From: a virus
IMG/VR virus record: IMGVR_UViG_3300031555_004811
DNA length: 30,107 bases
Strand: one strand, 5' to 3'
Shown here: positions 128 to 30,107 of the stretch, piece after piece
How the letters are laid out: every line of letters starts with the position of its first letter
Numbering within the stretch: position 1 is the first letter of the stretch
Translations under genes and position numbers: made by a program
Notes under the pieces: model-generated
The model's database searches: none
Told to the model about the DNA's origin: nothing
The model's input: the letters and a program-made list of their open reading frames with translations, nothing else

Positions 128-150
128 CCTATAATAAATTCAAGTTCCAC
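76..150 (-). CDS. 5' segment of a frame-interrupted gene downstream of the repressor (24 codons: MELEFIIGKKENIKNNNYNLEKKY)
   Basis: GTG at 150-148 overlaps the repressor stop (TAGTG). The frame ends at TAG 78-76, immediately after an A8 run (T8 on the plus strand, 82-89). A -1 shift on A_AAA_AAA joins it to the long open frame 29739..30074. Confidence 0.4.
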   Translation of the reverse strand: MELEFIIGKKENIKNNNYNLEKKY

Positions 151-791
151 TATAACCTCGTTCTTTTTTCTTTAGCAATACCAACAACTTTAATTGGCAG
201 TTGGTTAACTTGTTCTTTGCTAAACATCATAATATCATAAGCCATGTTATAAGGTTGTAATACTATACCTTTTTCATTCACTAATATCTTTTTAAATGTA
301 CTTTCAGTTCCGTTAATCATAACTGCAACATCCTTACCATTAAACAATTCTGAATCATTATTTTGCTCAAATATAACAATATCATTTTCATCATACTTAG
401 GGTACATAGAATCACCACTAATTTTAAGACCAAAGAATTTTTTTCCACCTTTAATCCAAGACTTTGGTATTTCTACATATTCAGTAATATCACTTTGACT
501 TTCAATTGGTATTCCTGCTTTAATAGTACCAAATACAGGTATTTGAACTACATCATAGGTATCTATATATTCAGCATTATCAAATTGTAGATTTTTGCTT
601 ACTAAATCATTTAATGGAACATTTAAGACATCGGCAATTTTTATTGCATTGTCAATAGTTGTTTCTATTTCACCATTTTCAATTCTTGAAATTGTGGACC
701 TATCAACTCCAATTTCATCAGCTAATTTTTGTTGCGAAATATTTTTTTCGTTGCGTAAATATTTAACATTGTTATTTAAAAATTCTGCCAT
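150..791 (-). CDS. CI/LexA-like phage repressor (HTH_XRE plus S24 autopeptidase)
   Basis: N-terminal HTH (ISQQKLADEIGVDRSTISRIENGE), Ala-Gly cleavage site (IKAG/IP), and S24 motifs GDSM and TFKK. ATG 791 sits behind AAGGAGGG, whereas the track start at 824 lacks an SD. The gene is divergent from the Cro-like gene. Confidence 0.9.
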   Translation of the reverse strand: MAEFLNNNVKYLRNEKNISQQKLADEIGVDRSTISRIENGEIETTIDNAIKIADVLNVPLNDLVSKNLQFDNAEYIDTYDVVQIPVFGTIKAGIPIESQSDITEYVEIPKSWIKGGKKFFGLKISGDSMYPKYDENDIVIFEQNNDSELFNGKDVAVMINGTESTFKKILVNEKGIVLQPYNMAYDIMMFSKEQVNQLPIKVVGIAKEKRTRL

Positions 792-844
792 ACAATCCCT
801 CCTTACATAAATAGTATAACACAAAAAATAAAAAAAACAACAAA

Positions 845-899
845 AAATGTGAAAAAATGCACATTTGATATTGACAAGTGCAAATGTGCACGATATAAT
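845..899 (+). promoter_or_regulatory. Early rightward promoter (TTGACA-17-TATAAT) with operator-like repeats
   Basis: TTGACA 871-876, a 17-bp spacer, TATAAT 894-899. The half-site AAATGTGCA occurs at 882-890, inverted at 858-866 (TGCACATTT), and in degenerate form at 845-853. Confidence 0.75.
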
Positions 900-923: not shown

Positions 924-1154
924 ATGTTAGAAGCAATAGGTAAAGAATTGAAAGTAATTAGAATTAGAAATGACCTATCTCTTGATGATGTTGCACATGA
1001 TATAAATATTAATAGAGAAACTTTAAGAAGATATGAAAACAATTCTAATGGATTATCTGTTGAAAGACTAGAAGAATTACTTAATTATTATAATATTGAA
1101 AAATCTATTTTTTTTAGCAATGTATGTGAATATATGCACGAAAAAAGCAATTAA
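924..1154 (+). CDS. Cro-like HTH_XRE transcriptional regulator
   Basis: HTH (LSLDDVAHDININRETLRRYENN). ATG 924 is preceded by GGAGGG. The upstream part of the track ORF (849-923) overlaps the promoter and operators. Confidence 0.8.
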   Translation: MLEAIGKELKVIRIRNDLSLDDVAHDININRETLRRYENNSNGLSVERLEELLNYYNIEKSIFFSNVCEYMHEKSN

Positions 1155-1165
1155 GAAGGAGTGAG

Positions 1166-1187
1166 ATTAAAATATGTAACCAATACA
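1166..1187 (+). repeat. Box a: ATTAAAATATGTAACCAATACA, abutting the SD of the 1199 gene
   Basis: A copy, with 3 mismatches, of the box at 1783-1801 and of the reverse complement of 29640-29661. Confidence 0.7.
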
Positions 1188-1198
1188 AGGAGGAATTA

Positions 1199-1414
1199 GT
1201 GTTATATAGTTATTTAAAAGAATATTTTTATAAAAATAAAATAAGTAATTATGAAATTGAAAGAAGAACAAAAATAAAACAATCTAAAATAAATTTAAGT
1301 TTAAATGGTAAAAGAAAACTTACTGCTGAAGAATTAATGTTAATCGCAATTAAATTTAATTTAGATTTAAACAAAATAAAAAAGATATTAAGCCAGTCGC
1401 CAAACAAGTCTTAA
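1199..1414 (+). CDS. Small HTH DNA-binding protein (XRE-like)
   Basis: GTG start behind AAGGAGGA. HTH-like segment ISNYEIERRTKIKQSKINLSLNGKRKLTAEEL. Confidence 0.6.
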   Translation: MLYSYLKEYFYKNKISNYEIERRTKIKQSKINLSLNGKRKLTAEELMLIAIKFNLDLNKIKKILSQSPNKS

Positions 1415-1811
1415 TATCTATACACAATTAATGAAGATACAACAATACTAGTATATTGCTGTATTTCCAGATTTAATACTAAGTCCACTACAGATATTTA
1501 TATTTAATATCCCAGTTAATTACTAGATTAATTGGTGTAGTAGTTTAACAATTACGAGTTTACTCTCTACAAATTACTTTTACTTGCCCCATAGTTGTTA
1601 AAACTTAACATATAGCTATCCAGCCTTATCTCTAGAAACTATCCAGTTACTTTATAACGAGAAAGTTAAGCACTTAGACAGGGCAAGTATAAAAACGCTT
1701 CTAATTATTTGAATCATCTCTTTCTTGCCATACAGGGCAAATAAAGTATATCAAAAAATAATTAGAAAATCAAATCAAAATAAAAATATGCAACCAACAT
1801 AAGGAGGAAAT
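1415..1811 (+). other. ORF-free structured leader or candidate ncRNA region (about 400 nt)
   Basis: No ORF above a few codons on either strand. It looks visibly less AT-rich than its surroundings. Complementary segments: 1581-1589/1681-1689 (9 bp) and 1724-1729/1735-1740. CTATCCAG occurs as a direct repeat at 1616-1623 and 1639-1646. Confidence 0.45.
1783..1801 (+). repeat. Box b: AAAATATGCAACCAACATA, abutting the SD of the 1812 gene
   Basis: Exact reverse complement of 29643-29661. It is followed directly by AGGAGG (1802-1807) and ATG 1812. Confidence 0.8.
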
Positions 1812-2012
1812 ATGAATATAGAAGAAATAAAAAATAAGGACTATATAAATGCAAATGAACTAATGCAAATAATTCCAAATCTAACTTATGATAATGCAAT
1901 AAAGTATATCAATGAAGTTAGAGAAGATATGAGAAATAAAGGCTATTGTATACCAATATCAAGACCTAAAGTAGCATTAACAAAATTAGTAAAGAAAAAA
2001 TTTGGCTGGTAA
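1812..2012 (+). CDS. Small DNA-binding protein, possible excisionase or early regulator
   Basis: 66 aa with strong SD AAGGAGGA. The pattern ANELMQIIPNLTYDNAIKYINEVREDMRNKGY....RPKVALTKLVKKKFG resembles small HTH Xis-like proteins of Firmicutes mobile elements. The functional assignment is tentative. Confidence 0.4.
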   Translation: MNIEEIKNKDYINANELMQIIPNLTYDNAIKYINEVREDMRNKGYCIPISRPKVALTKLVKKKFGW

Positions 2013-2024
2013 AGGAGAATAAAA

Positions 2025-2234
2025 ATGAAGAAAAAAAGAATAAATTATTTCAATGTAATGATAACTATTGTGTTTCTATTTTGTATTGGATTTATAACTA
2101 GGGATTTATATATTTTAATGTTTAAATTTGCAACATGGACAATTTTTGGATTTATAACTTTTCTAATCGTACTATACATTACTATAAAAATTGGTGAATA
2201 TTTATCAAGAGAAAGTAATAAAGGAAAAAAATAA
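2025..2234 (+). CDS. Small membrane protein (2 predicted TM helices)
   Basis: Hydrophobic stretches VMITIVFLFCIGFIT and TIFGFITFLIVLYITI; SD AAAGGAGAA. Confidence 0.6.
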   Translation: MKKKRINYFNVMITIVFLFCIGFITRDLYILMFKFATWTIFGFITFLIVLYITIKIGEYLSRESNKGKK

Positions 2235-2962
2235 TGGCTGAAAAAAGAATGTTTTCAAAAAAAATAACAGATAGTGATGTATTTGTAGAATTATCAAGTT
2301 CAACACAAGCATTATATTTTCATTTAAATCAGGGTGCCGATGATGATGGATTTAATAATCAAGTACAAAATGCAATGTTTAAAGCCCATGCAAGTGCAGA
2401 TGATTTAAAGGTTTTGTTAATGAAGAATTTTATTATTAGATTTGAAAGTGGTGTAATTGTAATAAAACATTGGCGAATGCATAACACCTTAAGAAAAGAT
2501 AGATATACACCTACAAGTTTTCAAGAAGAACTGAGTGCTTTAGATATAAAAGACAATGGTTCCTATACATTAATTGATAATGGTTGCCAAGTGGTTGCCA
2601 AAAGGTTGCCACAGAATAGTATAGATAAGAATAGTATAGATAAGAATAGTATAAATAATATATATGCTCAAAAATTTGAAAAATTTTGGAAAGAATATCC
2701 TAAAAAAACAGGTAAAGATAAATCCAAAAAATGGTTTGAGAAGAATAAACCAGATGATGAATTATTTGAATTAATGATGTCCCAGTTAGAAAGATTTAAA
2801 GATACAGAAGACTGGAAGAAACAAGGTGGTCAATATATACCATATCCAACAAGTTGGCTTAATGGTAAAAGATGGGAAGATGAATTTGAAACAGATACTG
2901 AAATAGAAATTAGAATAGAAAAAGAAATTATAGAGGGTACCTATGGAATTGAAGGATGTTAA
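2234..2962 (+). CDS. Phage replisome organizer (N-terminal Phage_rep_org_N-like domain)
   Basis: MFSKKITDSDVF..SSSTQALYFHLNQGADDDGF...DDLKVLLMKNFIIRFESGVIVIKHWRMHN matches the conserved N-terminal replisome-organizer motif. Iterons lie inside the gene. Confidence 0.8.
   Translation: MAEKRMFSKKITDSDVFVELSSSTQALYFHLNQGADDDGFNNQVQNAMFKAHASADDLKVLLMKNFIIRFESGVIVIKHWRMHNTLRKDRYTPTSFQEELSALDIKDNGSYTLIDNGCQVVAKRLPQNSIDKNSIDKNSINNIYAQKFEKFWKEYPKKTGKDKSKKWFEKNKPDDELFELMMSQLERFKDTEDWKKQGGQYIPYPTSWLNGKRWEDEFETDTEIEIRIEKEIIEGTYGIEGC
2582..2658. repeat. Iteron cluster (candidate origin): 3 x 11-bp GGTTGCCA units, then 3 x 15-bp GAATAGTATAGATAA units
   Basis: GGTTGCCA occurs at 2582, 2593 and 2604, an 11-bp phasing. 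GAATAGTATAGATAA occurs at 2614-2628 and 2629-2643, with a degenerate copy at 2644-2658. The repeats are translated as NSIDKNSIDKNSIN. Confidence 0.7.
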
Positions 2963-3497
2963 AGCAATTCTAAGAAGAATACAAGCAAATTATTCAAGTT
3001 TTAATCCAGATGCATATATGGTACAAGAATGGTTTAAAGAACTTAAAGATTATGATTTAGAAGATATTATGGAAAAATTAGATAAACACTTTAGGTCTGA
3101 AGAATATGGGAACCAAATACCAAAAGTATATTTTTTAACAAGATACTGTCAAAAATCTGAGATTAAAAGAAAAAATATAACAGCTAAATTAAAAGTAGTA
3201 TGTAAATTGTGTAGTGAAGTTGTAGAGTTAAAAGATTATGATACTCACTATTCAAGATGTAGTAGTACAAATTACATAATAACTCAAACTCAAAAATATT
3301 TTAATAAAAAAATTAATAGAGAGGGATTAATGAAATTACCTCAGCAGGAGTTTGATAACAAATATAATCAATTACTAAAATATATTCAAAAAAGTACTGA
3401 TGATATGGGAGAAATAGAAAGAATATATAAAATATTAAATTCAAAAGATGAAAGACAAATTGAGGTAAAGGTAGGTGAAGTATATGAAACTATTTAA
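2943..3497 (+). CDS. G39P-like replicative helicase loader with a C-terminal Cys/His cluster
   Basis: The N-terminus (VKAILRRIQANYSSFNPDAYMVQEWFKELKDYDLEDIMEKLDKH) resembles the SPP1 G39P loader family. CKLC...H..RC is a putative zinc site. Confidence 0.55.
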   Translation: MELKDVKAILRRIQANYSSFNPDAYMVQEWFKELKDYDLEDIMEKLDKHFRSEEYGNQIPKVYFLTRYCQKSEIKRKNITAKLKVVCKLCSEVVELKDYDTHYSRCSSTNYIITQTQKYFNKKINREGLMKLPQQEFDNKYNQLLKYIQKSTDDMGEIERIYKILNSKDERQIEVKVGEVYETI

Positions 3498-4310: not shown

Positions 4311-5159
4311 ATGAAGAAAGAAGAATTAATTCTAAAACTTGATGAATGGATTAATGAACAAAATTTTCAAGAGTATTCAAAAAATACATTAAGTCAATAC
4401 AAAGCAAATGTATTAAAGTTTATTGAGTGGTTGCCATCAGATGAAATAATAACTAAGACTACAACTATGAGATATAAAGAATATTTATATTCATTAGAAC
4501 CAAGACCAAAAACTAATAGTATTAATACTTGGATTATAGAGTTAAATAAATTTCTTAAATGGTTGTCATTGGAAGAATTAACATTAAAAAAAATAAAGCA
4601 ACAGTACAAAACTAGTAATGATGAAATATTAAGCATATCAGATTATAAAAGACTTTTAAGGTTTTCAAAAAAATTAGGATTTAATCAATTGTACTACATA
4701 ATGAAAACATTGGTAATGACAGGAATTAGAATATCAGAATTAAAATATTTTACTGTTGAAAGTATTAAGTCTAACTATATCTTAGTCTTCAATAAAGGTA
4801 AGGAAAGATATATTATTATTAGACAAGATTTAGCAAGAGAATTAAGAAAATATTGTAGGGAAAACAATATTAAATTTGGTTATGTATTTGTAAATAAGAA
4901 AACAAAAAAGATGCCAAATACATCAACTATATGGAGGCAAATGAAAAAGGTGGCAGGTGCTGCTAGAGTAAATAAAAATAAAGTTCATGCACATTCTTTT
5001 AGACATTTATTTGCTCAAATATATCTAGAAGAAAATCCACAAGACATAACAGGTTTAGCTGATTTAATGGGACATAATTCTTTAGAAACAACAAGAATTT
5101 ATACAAGAACATCAAATGTTCAAAAGAAGACTAAACTTGAAAAATTAAAATTTACATAA
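4311..5159 (+). CDS. Second tyrosine recombinase (XerC/XerD-like, 282 aa)
   Basis: The full catalytic set is visible: R (TGIRISELK), K (NKGKERY), HxxR (HSFRH), H (MGHNS), Y (TRIYT). An N-terminal SAM-like domain is present. Confidence 0.85.
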   Translation: MKKEELILKLDEWINEQNFQEYSKNTLSQYKANVLKFIEWLPSDEIITKTTTMRYKEYLYSLEPRPKTNSINTWIIELNKFLKWLSLEELTLKKIKQQYKTSNDEILSISDYKRLLRFSKKLGFNQLYYIMKTLVMTGIRISELKYFTVESIKSNYILVFNKGKERYIIIRQDLARELRKYCRENNIKFGYVFVNKKTKKMPNTSTIWRQMKKVAGAARVNKNKVHAHSFRHLFAQIYLEENPQDITGLADLMGHNSLETTRIYTRTSNVQKKTKLEKLKFT

Positions 5160-11273: not shown

Positions 11274-11669
11274 ATGGATTTATTTAAATTAAAAGAATTA
11301 ATTGAAGATACAAAAATAGATATTAATTTTTATAAGAAAGAAAGAAATAGAATTGAATCAAAACTTATGCCAGGAGGTTCGAGTTTCAATAATATTTCAG
11401 TTCAAGGTGGAATACATGATAGAGATAAAGCATTATTAGAATATACAGAAATAGGCATATTATTAGATGATGCAATTAAAAAATTAAATAATCTCACTGA
11501 TGTACAAAATCAAAAATATAAAAATTATATTTCAGCTAATGATTATGATAAACAAATATATGTTGAAAAAAAATTATTTAAATGGAAAGATAGCAAGATA
11601 TCTTCTAGGCATAATGGTTTAAGTCGTTCTCAGATACATAGAATAGTTAAAAAAATAGAGAAAGAATGA
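11274..11669 (+). CDS. Putative late-gene regulator (ArpU/RinA/DUF1492-like, sigma region-4-like HTH)
   Basis: It is the last gene before the late leader. The MPGGSSFNNISVQGG loop and C-terminal HTH-like NGLSRSQIHRIVKKI resemble the small late activators of Firmicutes phages. Confidence 0.5.
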   Translation: MDLFKLKELIEDTKIDINFYKKERNRIESKLMPGGSSFNNISVQGGIHDRDKALLEYTEIGILLDDAIKKLNNLTDVQNQKYKNYISANDYDKQIYVEKKLFKWKDSKISSRHNGLSRSQIHRIVKKIEKE

Positions 11670-11828
11670 AACAAAATGCAACATTGTTTATGTAAAAATG
11701 TTATCGTAGAGATTTATTAAAATCATTACATTTAACCTTTAAATAAAAACACTACATTAATAAGTAGTGTACTGATGATATTGTAAGAAGTCTTTAGTTT
11801 TACTAAAAGTAGTAAATATCATTGGTAC

Positions 11829-11892
11829 AGTACTAATTAAGTACTTTTACCCCTTTTTATTTTGGATAGGAATTGCCTCCTATTCTTTTTTT
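11829..11892 (+). terminator. Two tandem intrinsic terminator-like hairpins in the late-operon leader
   Basis: The first is AGTACT-AATTA-AGTACT (11829-11845) followed by a T-rich tract. The second is GATAGGA-ATTGCC-TCCTATT (11865-11884) followed by T7 (11886-11892). Confidence 0.6.
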
Positions 11893-11925
11893 GTTATATA
11901 AAGTGGGTGATTTTAGGAGGAAAAT

Positions 11926-12303
11926 ATGGTTAAAACAATAACAATTGGAAGTAAAGAATATAATTTAAAATCAAGTGCATTTACAATGTTTTCATATAAG
12001 AATCAAACTGGAAGAGATTTTTTACAAGATATTAATTCTTTAAATGATAAAGTAAAGGAAATTAATAAATTACCTAAAGAAGAACAAAATTCAGCTTGGT
12101 TAAATGAATTTAGTTCTATAATGGAAATTGCTTTAAAGTTAACTCATATTATGATTACAGAACAAGATAGAACATTTAAGTCATATGATGAGTGGTTAAA
12201 AGAGTTAGATAATTTAATGGGTGAAGGTAACTCTTGGCTTCAGGAGGTTTTAGAAGTTGGTATAGCACCCTTTTTTGGGAGAATACAAAACTCCCAAAAT
12301 TGA
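11926..12303 (+). CDS. Tail assembly chaperone (gpG-like)
   Basis: The N-terminus ITIGSKEYNLKSSAFTMFSYKNQTGRDF matches the usual TAC pattern (I.I.GKEY.L......a...ye..tGk.f). A T6 slippery run lies just before the stop, and an overlapping downstream frame lacks its own SD. Confidence 0.6.
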   Translation: MVKTITIGSKEYNLKSSAFTMFSYKNQTGRDFLQDINSLNDKVKEINKLPKEEQNSAWLNEFSSIMEIALKLTHIMITEQDRTFKSYDEWLKELDNLMGEGNSWLQEVLEVGIAPFFGRIQNSQN

Positions 12304-15188: not shown

Positions 15189-16399
15189 TGGAAATAAAAA
15201 GTTTATTTAAAAAAATATTTAATACAGATAAAAGTGTAACATATGGAACATCTTTAAAACTATTAAATGGCTATCCAGCATCATTTACAAATTTTGATGG
15301 TGAAATATATGATGATGTAGATGCAAGGTCATGTATAGATGCAATAGCAAGAAATGGTGCAAAACTAAATCCTAGACATATAGCATTAACAAAGAATGGA
15401 TACAAGAATGTAGATGATAACTTACATAGATTATTGTCAGAACAACCAAATGAACTTCAAAATGCATATGACTTTTATTATTATGTTATTACTGAACTTA
15501 AAAGATATAATGATGCTTATGTTTATATAGCTAGAGATGAAAATTATAAACCAATAGGACTGTATCCTCTTCATAGTAGTAGATATTCATTTGTTGAATA
15601 TAAGAATGAGATTTATATACAGTTTCAATTTGGAAATGGTATGAAACATACTTGTAACATTAAGGATGTAATCCATTTAAAAAATATGGCATCATCATCA
15701 AGTATAACAGGAGGAAATTCTTCACCAATTATTAAAGCATTAAGTATTAAACATATTATTGATGAGGGAATAGTTAATGCAATAAGAACAACTCAAAGTA
15801 TTAAAGGTGTATTAAAGAGTACAAAGGCAATGTTAAAACCAGAAGATGTTACTAAAATGAGAAATCAATTTGTTTCTGATTTTGTTAATAATGCTGATGG
15901 TTCAGGAATAGGTGGATTAGATGCTACAACTGATTTTAAGGAAATAAATTTAAATCCACAAACTGCAACAGATACTCAAGTTAAAGCATTTGATAATAAA
16001 GTGCTAAATTATTATGGTGTTAGTGAAAATATTATTCAAAGTAAATATACAGAAGATGAATGGAATGCATTTTATGAATCAATTTTAGAACCAATTGCAA
16101 TTCAAATGTCTTTAGAATTTACAAATAAGATATTTACATTAGGTGAAAGAAACCATGGTAATAAAATTGTATTTACTTCAAATAGGTTACAATATGCTAG
16201 TAATAATACAAAAATAAATATAGCAAGATATATGAGTAATTATATGATGATAGATGAAATAAGAGAAATACATAATTTGCCACCACTTCCAAATGGTGAA
16301 GGACAAAAAGTATTACAAGATTTAAATCATATAGATAGTTCAAAAGCTAATCAATATCAAATAGGAGAAAATAATGATAATGGAGGAAACAATGAATAA
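15188..16399 (+). CDS. Portal protein (HK97 family)
   Basis: 403 aa immediately after terL (TAATG overlap); the size and order are typical of the HK97-type head module. Confidence 0.85.
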   Translation: MEIKSLFKKIFNTDKSVTYGTSLKLLNGYPASFTNFDGEIYDDVDARSCIDAIARNGAKLNPRHIALTKNGYKNVDDNLHRLLSEQPNELQNAYDFYYYVITELKRYNDAYVYIARDENYKPIGLYPLHSSRYSFVEYKNEIYIQFQFGNGMKHTCNIKDVIHLKNMASSSSITGGNSSPIIKALSIKHIIDEGIVNAIRTTQSIKGVLKSTKAMLKPEDVTKMRNQFVSDFVNNADGSGIGGLDATTDFKEINLNPQTATDTQVKAFDNKVLNYYGVSENIIQSKYTEDEWNAFYESILEPIAIQMSLEFTNKIFTLGERNHGNKIVFTSNRLQYASNNTKINIARYMSNYMMIDEIREIHNLPPLPNGEGQKVLQDLNHIDSSKANQYQIGENNDNGGNNE

Positions 16400-16991
16400 A
16401 GAAAAAAGAATGCTTGAGGTTGAAATGAGAGCATTAGAAAATAATGAAGATAAGATGATAATTGAAGGATATCCAATAACATTTAACAGTCCTGCAAAAC
16501 ATGGTTATACAGAAATAATTGCAGATACTGCATTGGATAATTGTGATTTGAGTGATGTACCACTAAAGTATAATCACGAAGACAGTCATTTAATAATGGC
16601 TAGAACTAGAAATGGTTCATTAAAACTAGAAAAAGATTCAGTAGGTTTAAAAATGATAGCTGAACTTATTGATACACAGTCTAATAAGGATATTTATAAG
16701 TCAATAAAAGCAGGTTTAATAGATAAGATGAGTTTTGCATTTACTGTTAGAGCTGATGAATATGATTATGATTCTGATACAAGAATAATTACAGATATAG
16801 ATAGATTATATGATGTATCAGTAGTTGATTTACCATGGTATGACACTACAAGTGTTTATGCTAGAGGATTAGATAATTCAAATGATTTTATGGAAAAACG
16901 CAATAAATTAAGAGAAGAGAGAGAAGAACAAATAAAAAATGATAGTGAATTAGCTAGTTTAAAAGAAGAAATATTAAATAAATTAGGTTAA
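16392..16991 (+). CDS. Prohead maturation protease (HK97 family)
   Basis: It lies between the portal and capsid genes. The sequence IIEGYPITFNSP ... LKYNHE ... MSFAF is typical of the S78/U35 family. ATG 16392 sits behind GGAGGA; the track start is 16374. Confidence 0.8.
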   Translation: MNKEKRMLEVEMRALENNEDKMIIEGYPITFNSPAKHGYTEIIADTALDNCDLSDVPLKYNHEDSHLIMARTRNGSLKLEKDSVGLKMIAELIDTQSNKDIYKSIKAGLIDKMSFAFTVRADEYDYDSDTRIITDIDRLYDVSVVDLPWYDTTSVYARGLDNSNDFMEKRNKLREEREEQIKNDSELASLKEEILNKLG

Positions 16992-17005: not shown

Positions 17006-17028
17006 AGGAACTGGATAGTTCTTTTTTT
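17006..17028 (+). terminator. Weak intrinsic terminator or attenuator between the protease and capsid genes
   Basis: AGGAAC-TGGATA-GTTCTT hairpin followed by a T7 run. Confidence 0.45.
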
Positions 17029-17125
17029 GTTGGTGGATACCAACTACGAGTTTAATAAATGCTGGATAGCAATAATGGGAAAGAAAACTGCCCTAAAGAG
17101 TATCAAAAACAAGGAGGATTCAGTT

Positions 17126-27746: not shown

Positions 27747-28190
27747 ATGAAAGACATTTTAACCACAATAAATGATAACCTTACATTAATTTTAACAGGG
27801 GTTGGTATAATTGTTGCAATAACTGAAAAATGGAAAAAAATACCATTTAAACCATTTACAAGGCTATTTAAATATATTGGTAATTTATGTAGAGATGAGG
27901 AAATGCATCAAAAAGTAGATAATATGACTAATAATTTAACTGAATTACAAAAAAGACATGATGAAGATGAAATGGATAGATTAAGATATGAAATATTAGG
28001 ATTTGAGAGAACACTAAGAAATTTAAAGAAAACTGAAACAGTATCACAAGAAGAGTTTATTACAATATTTGATATGGTAGAAAAATATCATATTTTAATT
28101 GAAAAACATCATAAGATGAATAACAAGTTTGAGAAAGCACAGGAATATATAACAGAAAAATATAAAATAATGTATGGAGCAAGAGTCTAG
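27747..28190 (+). CDS. Membrane-anchored coiled-coil protein in the moron position (unknown function)
   Basis: N-terminal TM LTLILTGVGIIVAIT followed by a helical domain. It lies between the endolysin and attP and has its own terminator. Confidence 0.55.
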   Translation: MKDILTTINDNLTLILTGVGIIVAITEKWKKIPFKPFTRLFKYIGNLCRDEEMHQKVDNMTNNLTELQKRHDEDEMDRLRYEILGFERTLRNLKKTETVSQEEFITIFDMVEKYHILIEKHHKMNNKFEKAQEYITEKYKIMYGARV

Positions 28191-28215
28191 AGAGTAAAAT
28201 CTCTAGTCTTTTTTT
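28187..28215 (+). terminator. Intrinsic terminator ending the late and lysis transcription unit
   Basis: CTAGAGA-GTAAAA-TCTCTAG hairpin followed by a T-run. Confidence 0.75.
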
Positions 28216-28231
28216 GTTGATATTTAATTTA

Positions 28232-28431
28232 TTTCACATCTAGATGATTACTAAAATGATAAAAAAATAGTACAAATGACTAGGTATGAGAATATAATAA
28301 ATCCTTAATTTACCTGTATTTATAGAAACGTAAAGTATTGTAAAACTTTTCCCTTATTCTCCACCAATAGGCAATTAACCCTTATTTTATAAGGGTTTTT
28401 ATTTTTTACATCTAGTTTCACATCTAGTTTT
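28232..28431. other. Candidate attP region
   Basis: Non-coding stretch adjacent to the 3' end of int. TTTCACATCTAG is directly repeated at 28232-28243 and 28416-28427, with TTTACATCTAG at 28405-28415; these are possible arm-type sites. Confidence 0.5.
28377..28407 (+). terminator. Orphan plus-strand terminator hairpin inside the candidate attP
   Basis: AACCCTTA-TTTTA-TAAGGGTT followed by TTTATTTTTT. No phage plus-strand gene ends here. Confidence 0.5.
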
Positions 28432-29544
28432 TTATAAATTGTTTAGTAAATCTACAATTTCATCTTGTACAGTAGGGAATAGATGCATATATGTTTTTTG
28501 CATAACATCTATTGTATGGCCCATACGGTCTGATAGCATTAAAAAGAATTTAGCTGTATCAGTTTGTCCTGATTTAATATATTCATTAATGAGTAAAGAA
28601 ACATGACTATGTCTAAATTCATGCATTGTAATTTCATTTACACCTGCTAATTTAAAATATGTTTTTTTATGTCTATCTATAGTTGTTGGTGCTAAATAAA
28701 CTGGTCCTCCAAAAACAAACCAATTATCTGAATAATCTTTATATTTAATTTGATTCAATTTATATGAGTATAAACATTCTTTTAATGTTTTACTCATTTT
28801 TATTTTTCTATTTTTATTAGTTTTTGTTGAAGTAATTATTGCTTTACCTTTATTTTTAGTGCATAAAGTTTTATTTATTTTAATTTCATTGTTATTAAAA
28901 TCTACATCTTCCCATGTTAAGGCAAGTAATTCTCCTTTTCTACAACCAGTATAATATGCAGTAAGAAAAAATGCTTTCCATAATTCATCATCAATGATTG
29001 ATATAAACTGGTTAAATTCAATTAATGTAATATATCTTAATCTTTTATCATCATCAATTATATCGTTATTTTTTCTTTTAAATCTGCCAAATAGACTAAT
29101 TGGATTTATTTCTAAACCATAATTTTTAATTGAATAATCAAATATGTTCTTTAATATATTTAAAATTTTATTCATATAATCTACAGTTAAATTTAATGAT
29201 TCAAGATTTTGGGCCCATTCTCTAATATTTGATATATTTATTTTGTTAATATATTTTTTTTCAAAATGAGGTAATATATGTTTTTCATAATCTTGTCTAT
29301 ATGTATATACAGTAGATGGTTTACTATATTTTTTTAAGTTTTCAAAATATTCATCAGCAACTAAATCAAATCTAATATTTATAGGATTATCATTTTTTAG
29401 AACAAACATTGATAATGCTTTTTCACACTCTTCACGAGTTTTATATTTTTTAGAAGTATATTGTTTATTATTTTTTGATTTTCTAAAATAATAGCATCTT
29501 CCATCTTTAGTTGGAGTGCCTTTATATATCTTATTTGCTTTCAT
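28432..29544 (-). CDS. int: Tyrosine integrase
   Basis: 370 aa. Catalytic R (GCRKGE), HxxR (HEFRH), H (MGHT) and Y (KTYMHL), with an N-terminal arm-binding/SAM-like region. It lies adjacent to attP and the repressor module. Confidence 0.9.
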   Translation of the reverse strand: MKANKIYKGTPTKDGRCYYFRKSKNNKQYTSKKYKTREECEKALSMFVLKNDNPINIRFDLVADEYFENLKKYSKPSTVYTYRQDYEKHILPHFEKKYINKINISNIREWAQNLESLNLTVDYMNKILNILKNIFDYSIKNYGLEINPISLFGRFKRKNNDIIDDDKRLRYITLIEFNQFISIIDDELWKAFFLTAYYTGCRKGELLALTWEDVDFNNNEIKINKTLCTKNKGKAIITSTKTNKNRKIKMSKTLKECLYSYKLNQIKYKDYSDNWFVFGGPVYLAPTTIDRHKKTYFKLAGVNEITMHEFRHSHVSLLINEYIKSGQTDTAKFFLMLSDRMGHTIDVMQKTYMHLFPTVQDEIVDLLNNL

Positions 29545-29596: not shown

Positions 29597-29712
29597 GCAA
29601 AACTTAAAAAGATAAAAAATGATTTATTCTTTTTTACCTAAATATGTTGGTTGCATATTTTAATTAAGATTTGCATTTTGATTTATGTCCCTTGGCCGAG
29701 GGGCATTTTTTT
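29597..29712 (+). ncRNA. Candidate small antisense RNA of about 115 nt (promoter-to-terminator unit without an ORF)
   Basis: It is bracketed by the promoter at 29562-29590 and a terminator (stem 29686-29693/29698-29705, loop GGCC, T7 at 29706-29712). It contains the hairpin AAATATG-TTGGTTG-CATATTT (29640-29660). Bases 29643-29661 are the exact reverse complement of 1783-1801. Confidence 0.45.
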
Positions 29713-29738: not shown

Positions 29739-30074
29739 TTATTTATTAATGATATTTAAAATTTCGTTACATCTATTTTCTATAATGCTAATATAATTAT
29801 TTATATCATTAGTATTTGTAATGTAAGCTTTCCAAAATAGTTCATTTTTGTTACTTTGTGCATTAAATAGTGGGTTATTATAATGTTTCAGTTTATCTTC
29901 TTTTGTAAGAAATAATTTTATCCATTTTGAATTATTTGAATATTTAAGTCTTATTAAGTCATAATTGTAAAAGGTAAGTGTAGTATATGCTGTAGATTTC
30001 TCAATAATTGAAAAGTTAGATTTATTATATTTGTCAAATATTTTAATCCAATTTTCTAATATTTTTTTTCTAAA
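29739..30074 (-). CDS. Main body (111 codons) of the frame-interrupted gene between the repressor and int; no in-frame start codon
   Basis: Hand translation gives FRKKILENWIKIFDKYNKSNFSIIEKSTAYTTLTFYNYDLIRLKYSNNSKWIKLFLTKEDKLKHYNNPLFNAQSNKNELFWKAYITNTNDINNYISIIENRCNEILNIINK, then a stop. The frame contains no ATG, GTG or TTG. It continues from the 76..150 segment after a -1 shift in the A8 run. It spans the contig junction, so the ORF track misses it. Confidence 0.45.
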   Translation of the reverse strand, partial: FRKKILENWIKIFDKYNKSNFSIIEKSTAYTTLTFYNYDLIRLKYSNNSKWIKLFLTKEDKLKHYNNPLFNAQSNKNELFWKAYITNTNDINNYISIIENRCNEILNIINK

Positions 30075-30107
30075 TTATAGTTGTTGTTTTTTATGTTTTC
30101 TTTTTTT
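29981..30107. repeat. Right copy of the exact 127-bp terminal duplication (same as 1..127)
   Basis: Read directly; identical to bases 1-127. Confidence 0.95.

Follow-up and report, generated by a model that had tools for sequence, protein, structure and literature searches.

The ORF-free interval in the early operon of a temperate phage, best read as a leftward gene for a structured RNA related to the PGK motif

What occupies the long ORF-free stretch that interrupts the early operon of a temperate phage? The window analyzed here, the whole 30,107-nt sequence of IMG/VR record IMGVR_UViG_3300031555_004811, holds the complete, circular genome of a temperate phage of ~29,980 bp (1-127 being identical to 29981-30107), with a GC content of ~25%. 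Its switch region contains a LexA/S24-type, cI-like repressor gene on the minus strand (824..150), the rightward promoter P_R (871-899, plus strand), which is a perfect match in a promoter consensus scan, a cro-like HTH gene (924..1154, plus strand), and a second small XRE-type HTH gene (1199..1414, plus strand) for a 71-aa protein with weak Pfam HTH_3 and HTH_26 matches and a PHROG 'transcriptional repressor' match. An interval of 397 nt (1415-1811) separates this gene from the xis-like gene for a 66-aa protein (1812..2012, plus strand), which is followed by a small membrane protein gene, the DnaD-like loader gene (2234..2962) and more early genes. An earlier note, made from the letters of this DNA, had described the interval as ORF-free and structured, and had drawn attention to its place between the HTH gene and the xis-like gene. 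Lying between immediate-early regulators and the xis and replication genes, this is a sensible position for a regulatory checkpoint.

The interval contains no real ORF: the longest are of 25 aa (1725..1802, plus strand) and 21 aa (1717..1652, minus strand), and because all three stop types occur throughout all six frames, no alternative genetic code would open one. The tight packing claimed for the other genes of the phage applies only roughly, since gaps of ~256 nt (11669-11926) and ~241 nt (28190-28432) occur elsewhere, and a further one of ~585 nt lies between int and cI. Likewise, the interval is less AT-rich than its immediate flanks (GC 0.27-0.31 vs 0.18-0.24), but the difference is modest and similar GC is found at 2200-3000. 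When compared with dinucleotide shuffles, 1415-1811 folds better on both strands (z = -3.7 for the plus strand and -2.7 for the minus strand).

The 21-aa hydrophobic ORF was considered as a type I toxin or other small protein and rejected, as its reading frame is not conserved. It is broken by a stop at codon 3 in one relative and at codon 5 in another, has no start at the corresponding position in a third, and the region lies in a different frame in two more; a purine tract abuts its start codon with zero spacing, and the region forms a covarying hairpin (P2, below) instead. In one pairwise comparison, the ORF resembled its counterpart in the relative L014.

Relatives of the interval and linkage to the small HTH gene

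The same phage is present in 12 metagenome contigs, with the interval 100% identical in 11 of them and carrying one mismatch in the twelfth, and look-ups by exact protein gave identical copies only, hence no sequence variation. A BLASTN search with 1300-1900 against 50,697 GenBank phages gave no match. Relatives come from IMG/VR, from rabbit-gut 'uncultured Bacilli'/Bacillota MAGs and from human-gut assemblies, with 231 homologues of the 71-aa HTH protein. Almost all of the homologue loci carry an ORF-poor stretch of 140-700 nt directly 3' of the HTH gene, and in many relatives this stretch is 60-89% identical to that of the window. Identity at this level across many related prophages implies that 1415-1811 is no chance feature.

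A predicted leftward promoter and terminator lie 3' of the HTH gene at nearly every homologue locus examined, whatever gene comes next. The gene beyond the element varies, and may be xis-like, another small DNA-binding protein, HTH_36/DnaB, or of unknown type. This variation of the downstream gene beside a constant HTH gene suggests a convergent two-gene module, in which the RNA element travels with the HTH gene, the two being convergent with overlapping 3' ends. The module is optional among related phages. Among relatives of the xis-like protein in IMG/VR the interval is mostly absent, L014 being the only exception. Linkage is thus to the 71-aa HTH gene and not to a recombinase, which argues against the recombination-site role that the earlier note had listed among its candidates.

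Predicted promoter, terminator and strand

A scan for promoter consensus, combined with conservation, identifies a predicted sigma-70-type promoter on the minus strand at 1773-1745. It consists of the -35 element TTGATT (1773-1768), a spacer of 17 nt and the extended -10 element TGaTATACT (1753-1745). Written in shorthand, the pattern is TTGATT-17-TGATATACT. The block 1745-1773 is the best conserved across all relatives. Of the 18 distinct promoter variants found among them, 17 keep the -35 sequence TTGAT(T/A), while a spacing of 17 nt, the TG and TATA(C/A)T are common to all 18; the spacer stretch TTTCTAA(T/C)TA is almost invariant. A candidate plus-strand promoter for the xis-like gene, TTGCCA-16-TATATC, was rejected for its poor -10 element, which lacks the final T, and because the minus-strand elements account for its conservation.

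The far end of the element carries a predicted intrinsic terminator on the minus strand (1419-1372), which overlaps the 71-aa HTH gene over its final ~40 nt. It is composed of the hairpin AGAUAUUAAG...CUUAAUAUCU (1419-1383, -11.8 kcal/mol) and the U-run UUUUUUAUUUUG (1383-1372). A simple scan misses it, since a hairpin with two G-C pairs and a loop of 17 nt falls outside the limits of that scan (three or more G-C pairs, loop length 3-8 nt). The relatives contain at least 10 different terminator stem sequences, each with a perfectly complementary partner (e.g. GAUAUUAAG, GAAAUCAU, GAAAUCAAG, GGAAAUUAAG, CAAGUUAG and AAGUAAU), always with the U-run directly 3' of the hairpin on the minus strand. 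The hairpin energy lies between -5.6 and -15.1 kcal/mol in 20 of the 21 sequences with a located U-run. Read on the plus strand, no U-run lies beyond the 1419-1383 hairpin, and the terminator scan of 700-2300 found no plus-strand terminator-like site.

With the 5' end placed by the -10 element and the 3' end by the U-run, the predicted transcript is ~365 nt long (1738..1372, minus strand). Predicted lengths in relatives fall into long forms of 340-487 nt and short forms of 105-223 nt; in the latter the core described below is absent, while the promoter, first hairpin and terminator are kept. Both a promoter and a terminator, as expected of an independent bacterial sRNA gene, are present here as predicted elements. 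The functional strand of the 1415-1811 element is most likely the minus strand, a call that relies mainly on these two predictions and on similarity to an Rfam family.

A pseudoknotted fold with competing helices and a PGK-like core

The predicted RNA would fold into a 5' hairpin, a pseudoknotted PGK-like core, a 3' hairpin and the terminator, and would stop within the 3'-terminal part of the HTH gene. Comparative support for the core comes from an alignment of 18 distinct sequences, for which helices P3, a 2-bp extension of P3, P4, P5, a GAG/CUC hairpin and P8 were proposed. Pairing is retained in 95.1% of 511 cells, compared with 76.9% in shuffles, and none of 500 shuffles reaches the observed value. 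The covariation score of the core helices is 0.529 (0.196 in shuffles), and 21 of the 29 core pairs show compensatory, two-sided changes. As a control, sliding the 3' partners by 1-3 columns lowers pairing to 34-55%. By helix, compensatory changes affect 6/6 pairs of P5, 7/7 of P8 and 5/6 of P4, and the pairs of the GAG/CUC hairpin are invariant. The conservation and compensatory changes that the earlier note had asked for are thus present in the aligned cores, and together with the 60-89% identity and the closed frames they bear out a conserved structured non-coding RNA, neither junk nor a hidden gene.

The 5' part contains the P2 hairpin (1720-1691, minus strand), which includes a conserved GGAG(A/U)UG and folds in every relative, with a differing stem sequence (e.g. 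UUCUA/UAGAA, UUGAU/AUCAA and UUCC/GGAA). The P4 stem (1671-1666 with 1608-1603, minus strand) encloses a lineage-variable insert, which differs among relatives and is not conserved across the family. In the window, the insert consists of two GGAU-loop hairpins (1648-1637 and 1625-1614, minus strand), corresponding to the direct repeat CTATCCAG found, as noted previously, at 1616-1623 and 1639-1646. The sequence CTGGATAG occurs five times in the window, with 0.31 expected. GGAU-loop hairpins also recur three times ahead of the capsid gene (17008-17071), a site at which they are conserved in relatives; the relatives of this capsid leader and those of the ncRNA come from different contigs.

The PGK-like core (1609-1512, minus strand) comprises P5, segment d, P6, the GAG/CUC hairpin and P8. 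P5 is the outer stem (1602-1597 with 1549-1544) and holds segment d in its internal loop; P6 (1586-1570), the GAG/CUC hairpin (1568-1555) and P8, with the loop CUAGUAA (1535-1512), follow on the same strand. The local hairpin proposed earlier at 1598-1610 gives way to this arrangement, as its arms pair instead with distant partners in P4 and P5, and those pairings covary. The 3' domain (1511-1433, minus strand) consists of a small hairpin (1511-1493) and the P10 hairpin (1468-1433). Seven relatives have a middle module of ~150 nt, in place of which the window has the small hairpin. P10 has a conserved ACUAG-type loop and folds in all of 11 diverse sequences with differing stems (-7.8 to -14.8 kcal/mol). 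For P2, P6 and P10 the MAFFT columns are out of structural register, and RNAalifold is weak on P10, so that these hairpins were checked sequence by sequence; each of the three, P6 included, occurs in every sequence with a differing stem.

Four short segments allow competing pairings. The complementary sequences pointed out in the earlier note are all in place, namely TACTTGCCC (1581-1589), GGGCAAGTA (1681-1689), CTTGCC (1724-1729) and GGGCAA (1735-1740), and read on the minus strand they give segments a (UUGCC, 1740-1736), b (GGCAAG, 1729-1724), c (CUUGCCCUGU, 1687-1678) and d (GGGGCAAGU, 1590-1582), of which c may pair with b or d. Pairing of a with b would form a small 5' hairpin (1740-1724); its pairs are almost invariant and therefore uninformative, and with transcription predicted to begin near G1738, no more than ~3 bp of it would remain. 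Helix P3 joins c with d (1590-1585), extended by 2 bp between 1679-1678 and 1594-1595. It is 98% paired, with compensatory GC to UA and CG to UA changes, and the extension varies between CG, UA and UG. As P3 crosses P5, the core is a pseudoknot.

For b:c, a compensatory change of two pairs, from GGCAAG/CUUGCC to GGCAGA/UCUGCC, is found in four sequences (L014, L032, L050 and L051); most of the compensation in b:c traces to a single clade. In a shifted register, L023 has GGAGU/ACUCC and L080 has GGGUGA/UCGCCC as the counterpart. When the 5' ~60 nt are folded in isolation, the minimum-free-energy structure has b:c stacked on P2 in 12 of 13 relatives, with an advantage of 4-10 kcal/mol over the best one that leaves c single-stranded. 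The alternative pairings of the CTTGCC and GGGCAA types anticipated earlier thus find support, with good covariation for c:d, and some covariation together with favored energy in the 5' part for b:c. The mutually exclusive b:c and c:d helices appear to be a real, conserved property of the RNA, which may reflect a regulated switch or a folding pathway.

The architecture resembles attenuators and riboswitch platforms (1:2 + 3:4 vs 2:3) in having four segments of two complementary types, the middle pair of which competes with the outer pairings; compensatory changes are seen in both competing helices, for b:c mostly in one clade. It differs from them in that the 3:4 helix spans ~90 nt and is not a terminator, and in that no aptamer, leader peptide or regulated downstream ORF was found here.

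The PGK motif is an orphan motif from gut metagenomes, described upstream of phosphoglycerate kinase (pgk) genes. An Rfam scan of the whole window gave nothing at gathering thresholds, in agreement with the earlier statement that no named RNA family is recognizable. Under permissive settings, PGK (RF03040), which Rfam classes as cis-regulatory, is the only recurring match. In the window it matches 1609-1512 (minus strand) with 31.3 bits and E = 0.14 in a 1-kb search, the gathering threshold being 50.8, and in seven relatives it scores 38-46 bits, with the best values in L036 (46.0) and L053 (45.9). All eight loci have a minus-strand match that falls in the homologous place and spans the full model (1-92). 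The PGK architecture of an outer stem around a GAG/CUC hairpin, followed by a 3' hairpin, is present, and the score for membership is not reached; given full-model sub-threshold matches and covarying model helices, the core is regarded as a diverged relative of PGK, not as a member.

Shared with PGK are the outer stem, the GAGAAAG-AAAACUC hairpin and the 3' hairpin with a CU(G/A)(A/G)UAA-type loop. Unlike PGK, the core has a conserved GGGGCAAG in the internal loop, whose pairing partner lies further 5', beyond the 92-nt model, and it is embedded in an RNA 4-5 times longer, with its own predicted promoter and terminator, located in a prophage switch region and not upstream of pgk genes. Scans of IMG/VR with the PGK consensus gave nothing real, the one match being a chance one inside a collagen-like gene.

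Candidate functions of the RNA

The conserved feature is best read as a leftward gene for a structured ncRNA related to PGK. Specifically, 1372-1773 (minus strand) is probably an independent gene for a ~365-nt RNA, which would regulate early genes in the manner of OOP, by convergent antisense action or by interference. The RNA gene would be read leftward, head-on against an early operon comprising P_R, the cro-like, 71-aa HTH and xis-like genes and the replication genes. As no separate promoter was found for the xis-like gene, polymerases from P_R probably must cross the RNA unit to reach xis and the replication genes, and convergent transcription may interfere with their passage. The RNA would also be complementary over its whole length to the early transcript, where it takes in the HTH mRNA 3' end, and in combination with the strong convergent promoter it could depress the HTH, xis and replication genes. 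Switching of c between b and d would leave the core open or pseudoknotted, and so may change the stability of the RNA or its binding to a partner. That the element is inherited together with the HTH gene, and that the promoter spacer is so unusually invariant, suggests control of the RNA promoter by the HTH protein; the spacer would then be a candidate operator, closing a feedback loop.

In phage lambda, OOP is a simple RNA of 77 nt. It is transcribed leftward from pO and ends at tO, overlapping the 3' end of cII by 52 nt (PMC5869508). As in the OOP arrangement, a predicted leftward promoter lies here beyond a small early regulator gene, with the terminator hairpin inside the 3' end of that gene, and the unit is convergent with the early operon and upstream of the replication genes; the overlap with the regulator is ~40 nt here, against 52 nt for OOP and cII (PMC5869508). 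Unlike OOP, the RNA is ~365 nt long with a conserved pseudoknotted fold, and the two sequences are unrelated. There is also a likeness to pR/pL of coliphage 186, where a strong promoter (a predicted one in this phage) faces the lytic early promoter across a region of overlap. Unlike in phage 186, the promoters are ~850 nt apart with a terminator between them, and what interferes is a conserved structured RNA instead of an mRNA.

The short relatives, which keep promoter, first hairpin and terminator, point to antisense or interference as the common denominator, and their lack of the core suggests that the core may serve another function. Antisense action or interference alone would leave the conservation of so elaborate a fold unexplained; the core and its competing helices point to a further layer, for instance control of stability or the binding of a partner.

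This excess of structure is what an alternative, somewhat unlikely account starts from, namely that the RNA acts in trans, its folded core, with the PGK-like pseudoknot, conserved CUAG-type loops and the lineage-specific hairpins of the insert, binding a protein or small molecule or sponging a factor, and with the antisense position being incidental or a means of coupling its synthesis to the switch region. The conserved, tertiary-looking pseudoknotted fold exceeds antisense needs, the core is related to an orphan motif classed as cis-regulatory by Rfam, and the GGAU-loop hairpins of the insert recur before the capsid gene; on the other side, the insert is not shared by the family as a whole and the core is missing from the short forms.

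A more speculative reading, which we consider rather unlikely, would place the RNA in a class of its own, not described so far, of large regulatory RNAs of prophages (340-490 nt) with a pseudoknotted, PGK-like sensor core. Binding of a metabolite of the host, or of a protein from either phage or host, would flip c between b and d and so set how tightly the early genes for excision and replication are blocked, the capsid-leader-like insert hairpins tying the RNA to late-gene control. If true, it would provide the first biological context for the orphan PGK motif.

We know of no large structured RNA in the lysis-lysogeny switch of temperate phages of Gram-positive gut bacteria. For the six Gram-positive genera looked up in a 2025 review of phage-derived sRNAs, only one prophage sRNA, from Staphylococcus aureus, is listed (PMC12197685). 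Metagenomes of the rabbit and human gut carry the element widely, always together with its small HTH partner; it ties the orphan motif PGK to a concrete genetic context, and offers a model of an RNA-based checkpoint between immediate-early and delayed-early phage genes.

It is improbable that the interval instead encodes a cis-acting structure in the rightward early mRNA, comparable to nutR/tR1, put or an attenuator, that controls read-through into the xis and replication genes, as the earlier note had proposed by analogy. Its position between immediate-early and delayed-early genes would suit such a role, Watson-Crick helices form on both strands, with the plus strand, too, folding better than shuffles (z = -3.7), and alternative pairings exist. 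However, the best-conserved block is the predicted leftward promoter, the covarying terminator hairpin has its U-run in the leftward direction only, no plus-strand terminator or U-run is found anywhere in the interval, and PGK matches occur on the minus strand only. Paired positions contain 40 G-U and 8 A-C cells in the minus-strand reading, so that 40 cells would become A-C mismatches on the plus strand, including one invariant U-G pair that accounts for 18 of them. Pairing accordingly amounts to 95.1% on the minus strand and 88.8% on the plus strand, with an RNAalifold energy that is barely strand-dependent (-17.4 vs -16.7). Rfam scans gave no nut- or put-like family. With HK022 put and lambda nut the element shares only its location in the early operon, 3' of cro-like genes; it is on the opposite strand, of other size and fold, with no Rfam match, and no plus-strand terminator lies downstream to be overridden. 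The earlier note was thus right on structure and competing pairings, and probably wrong on the strand and the nut/put analogy.

Quite improbable, too, is a long 5' leader or attenuator for minus-strand genes further left, with conditional read-through of the terminator. The element shares its strand with the cI-like gene (824..150), its position recalls that of lambda P_RE, a minus-strand gene lies directly past the HTH gene in some relatives (a 123-aa gene in those of the L050/L058 type), and the 1:2 + 3:4 vs 2:3 segment pattern is attenuator-like. Against this, the terminator is ~550 nt from cI with two opposing genes intervening, the sequence beyond it varies among relatives, and it is not part of the alternative helices. 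Least probable is a structured ssDNA element (such as a priming or lagging-strand origin signal) or a decaying gene remnant: the interval adjoins the DnaD-like loader gene (2234..2962) and covariation alone does not distinguish RNA from ssDNA, but a predicted, canonical double-stranded promoter and a hairpin/U-run terminator bracket the structure, G-U pairs are frequent, linkage is to the HTH gene and not to the replication genes, which differ among relatives, and covariation excludes a remnant.

Within 1415-1811, and outside the predicted RNA, the motif AATATGCAACCAACA lies just 5' of the RBS of the xis-like gene (1785-1799, plus strand). It has two further copies, at 1171-1185 (plus strand) and, upstream of int, at 29659-29645 (minus strand), and is limited to the near-identical contigs of the source phage.

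A repeated motif near the HTH, xis-like and integrase genes

The motif AATATG(C/T)AACCAA(C/T)A is present in three copies in the window, of which one lies immediately 5' of the ribosome-binding site of the HTH gene (1171-1185, + strand), one immediately 5' of that of the xis-like gene (1785-1799, + strand), and one approximately 100 nt 5' of where the integrase gene starts (29659-29645, - strand). The motif is included in an inverted repeat formed by 1758-1810 and 29634-29686 (53 nt, 77%). Because it is found solely in near-identical contigs of this phage, the motif may be a phage-specific operator by which HTH, xis and int are coordinated. The integrase (28432-29544, - strand), a tyrosine recombinase, adjoins the repressor and is one of two such enzymes in this phage. 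The other is a 282-aa XerC/D-like tyrosine recombinase encoded in the early operon (4311-5159, + strand), which is kept in the near-identical contigs. Between int and the repressor-side genes, GTCCCTTGGCCGAGGGGCATTTTTTTG forms a hairpin that is rich in G+C and has a T-run after it (29680-29710, + strand). In a genome that is otherwise very AT-rich, it is a probable terminator.

Short variants of the proposed RNA gene

The relatives of the ncRNA include short variants of 105-223 nt (loci L025/L034, L027, L029, L052 and L066-L074), in which the promoter, first hairpin and terminator are as in the long form, while the body is different or missing. L052 and L071 resemble long forms that have undergone deletion. 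The L025 variant again contains a GGGGCA segment, able to pair with UGCC on either side. In the L050, L052, L058 and L071 loci, a 123-aa minus-strand gene of no assigned function lies directly past the HTH gene. Transcripts of the RNA gene that read through would run into this 123-aa gene in the sense orientation.

GGAU-loop hairpins and loader-gene repeats

The interval separating ORF 16374..16991 from the capsid gene contains three hairpins (17008-17071, + strand), each with a GGAU loop closed by a U-A pair: GAACU-GGAU-AGUUC followed by U7, GUUGGU-GGAU-ACCAAC, and UGCU-GGAU-AGCA. These capsid-leader hairpins are kept in the related sequences L086-L089, with GGAU or GGAG loops. Two hairpins of the same type (GGAU loop, U-A closed) occur in the variable insert of the ncRNA (1648-1614, - strand), and CTGGATAG is found in 5 copies in the window versus 0.31 expected. 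Tandem repeats within an initiator gene are typical of an embedded phage replication origin, and the DnaD-like loader gene contains three AATAGTATAGATAAG-type units in tandem (2625-2660, + strand).
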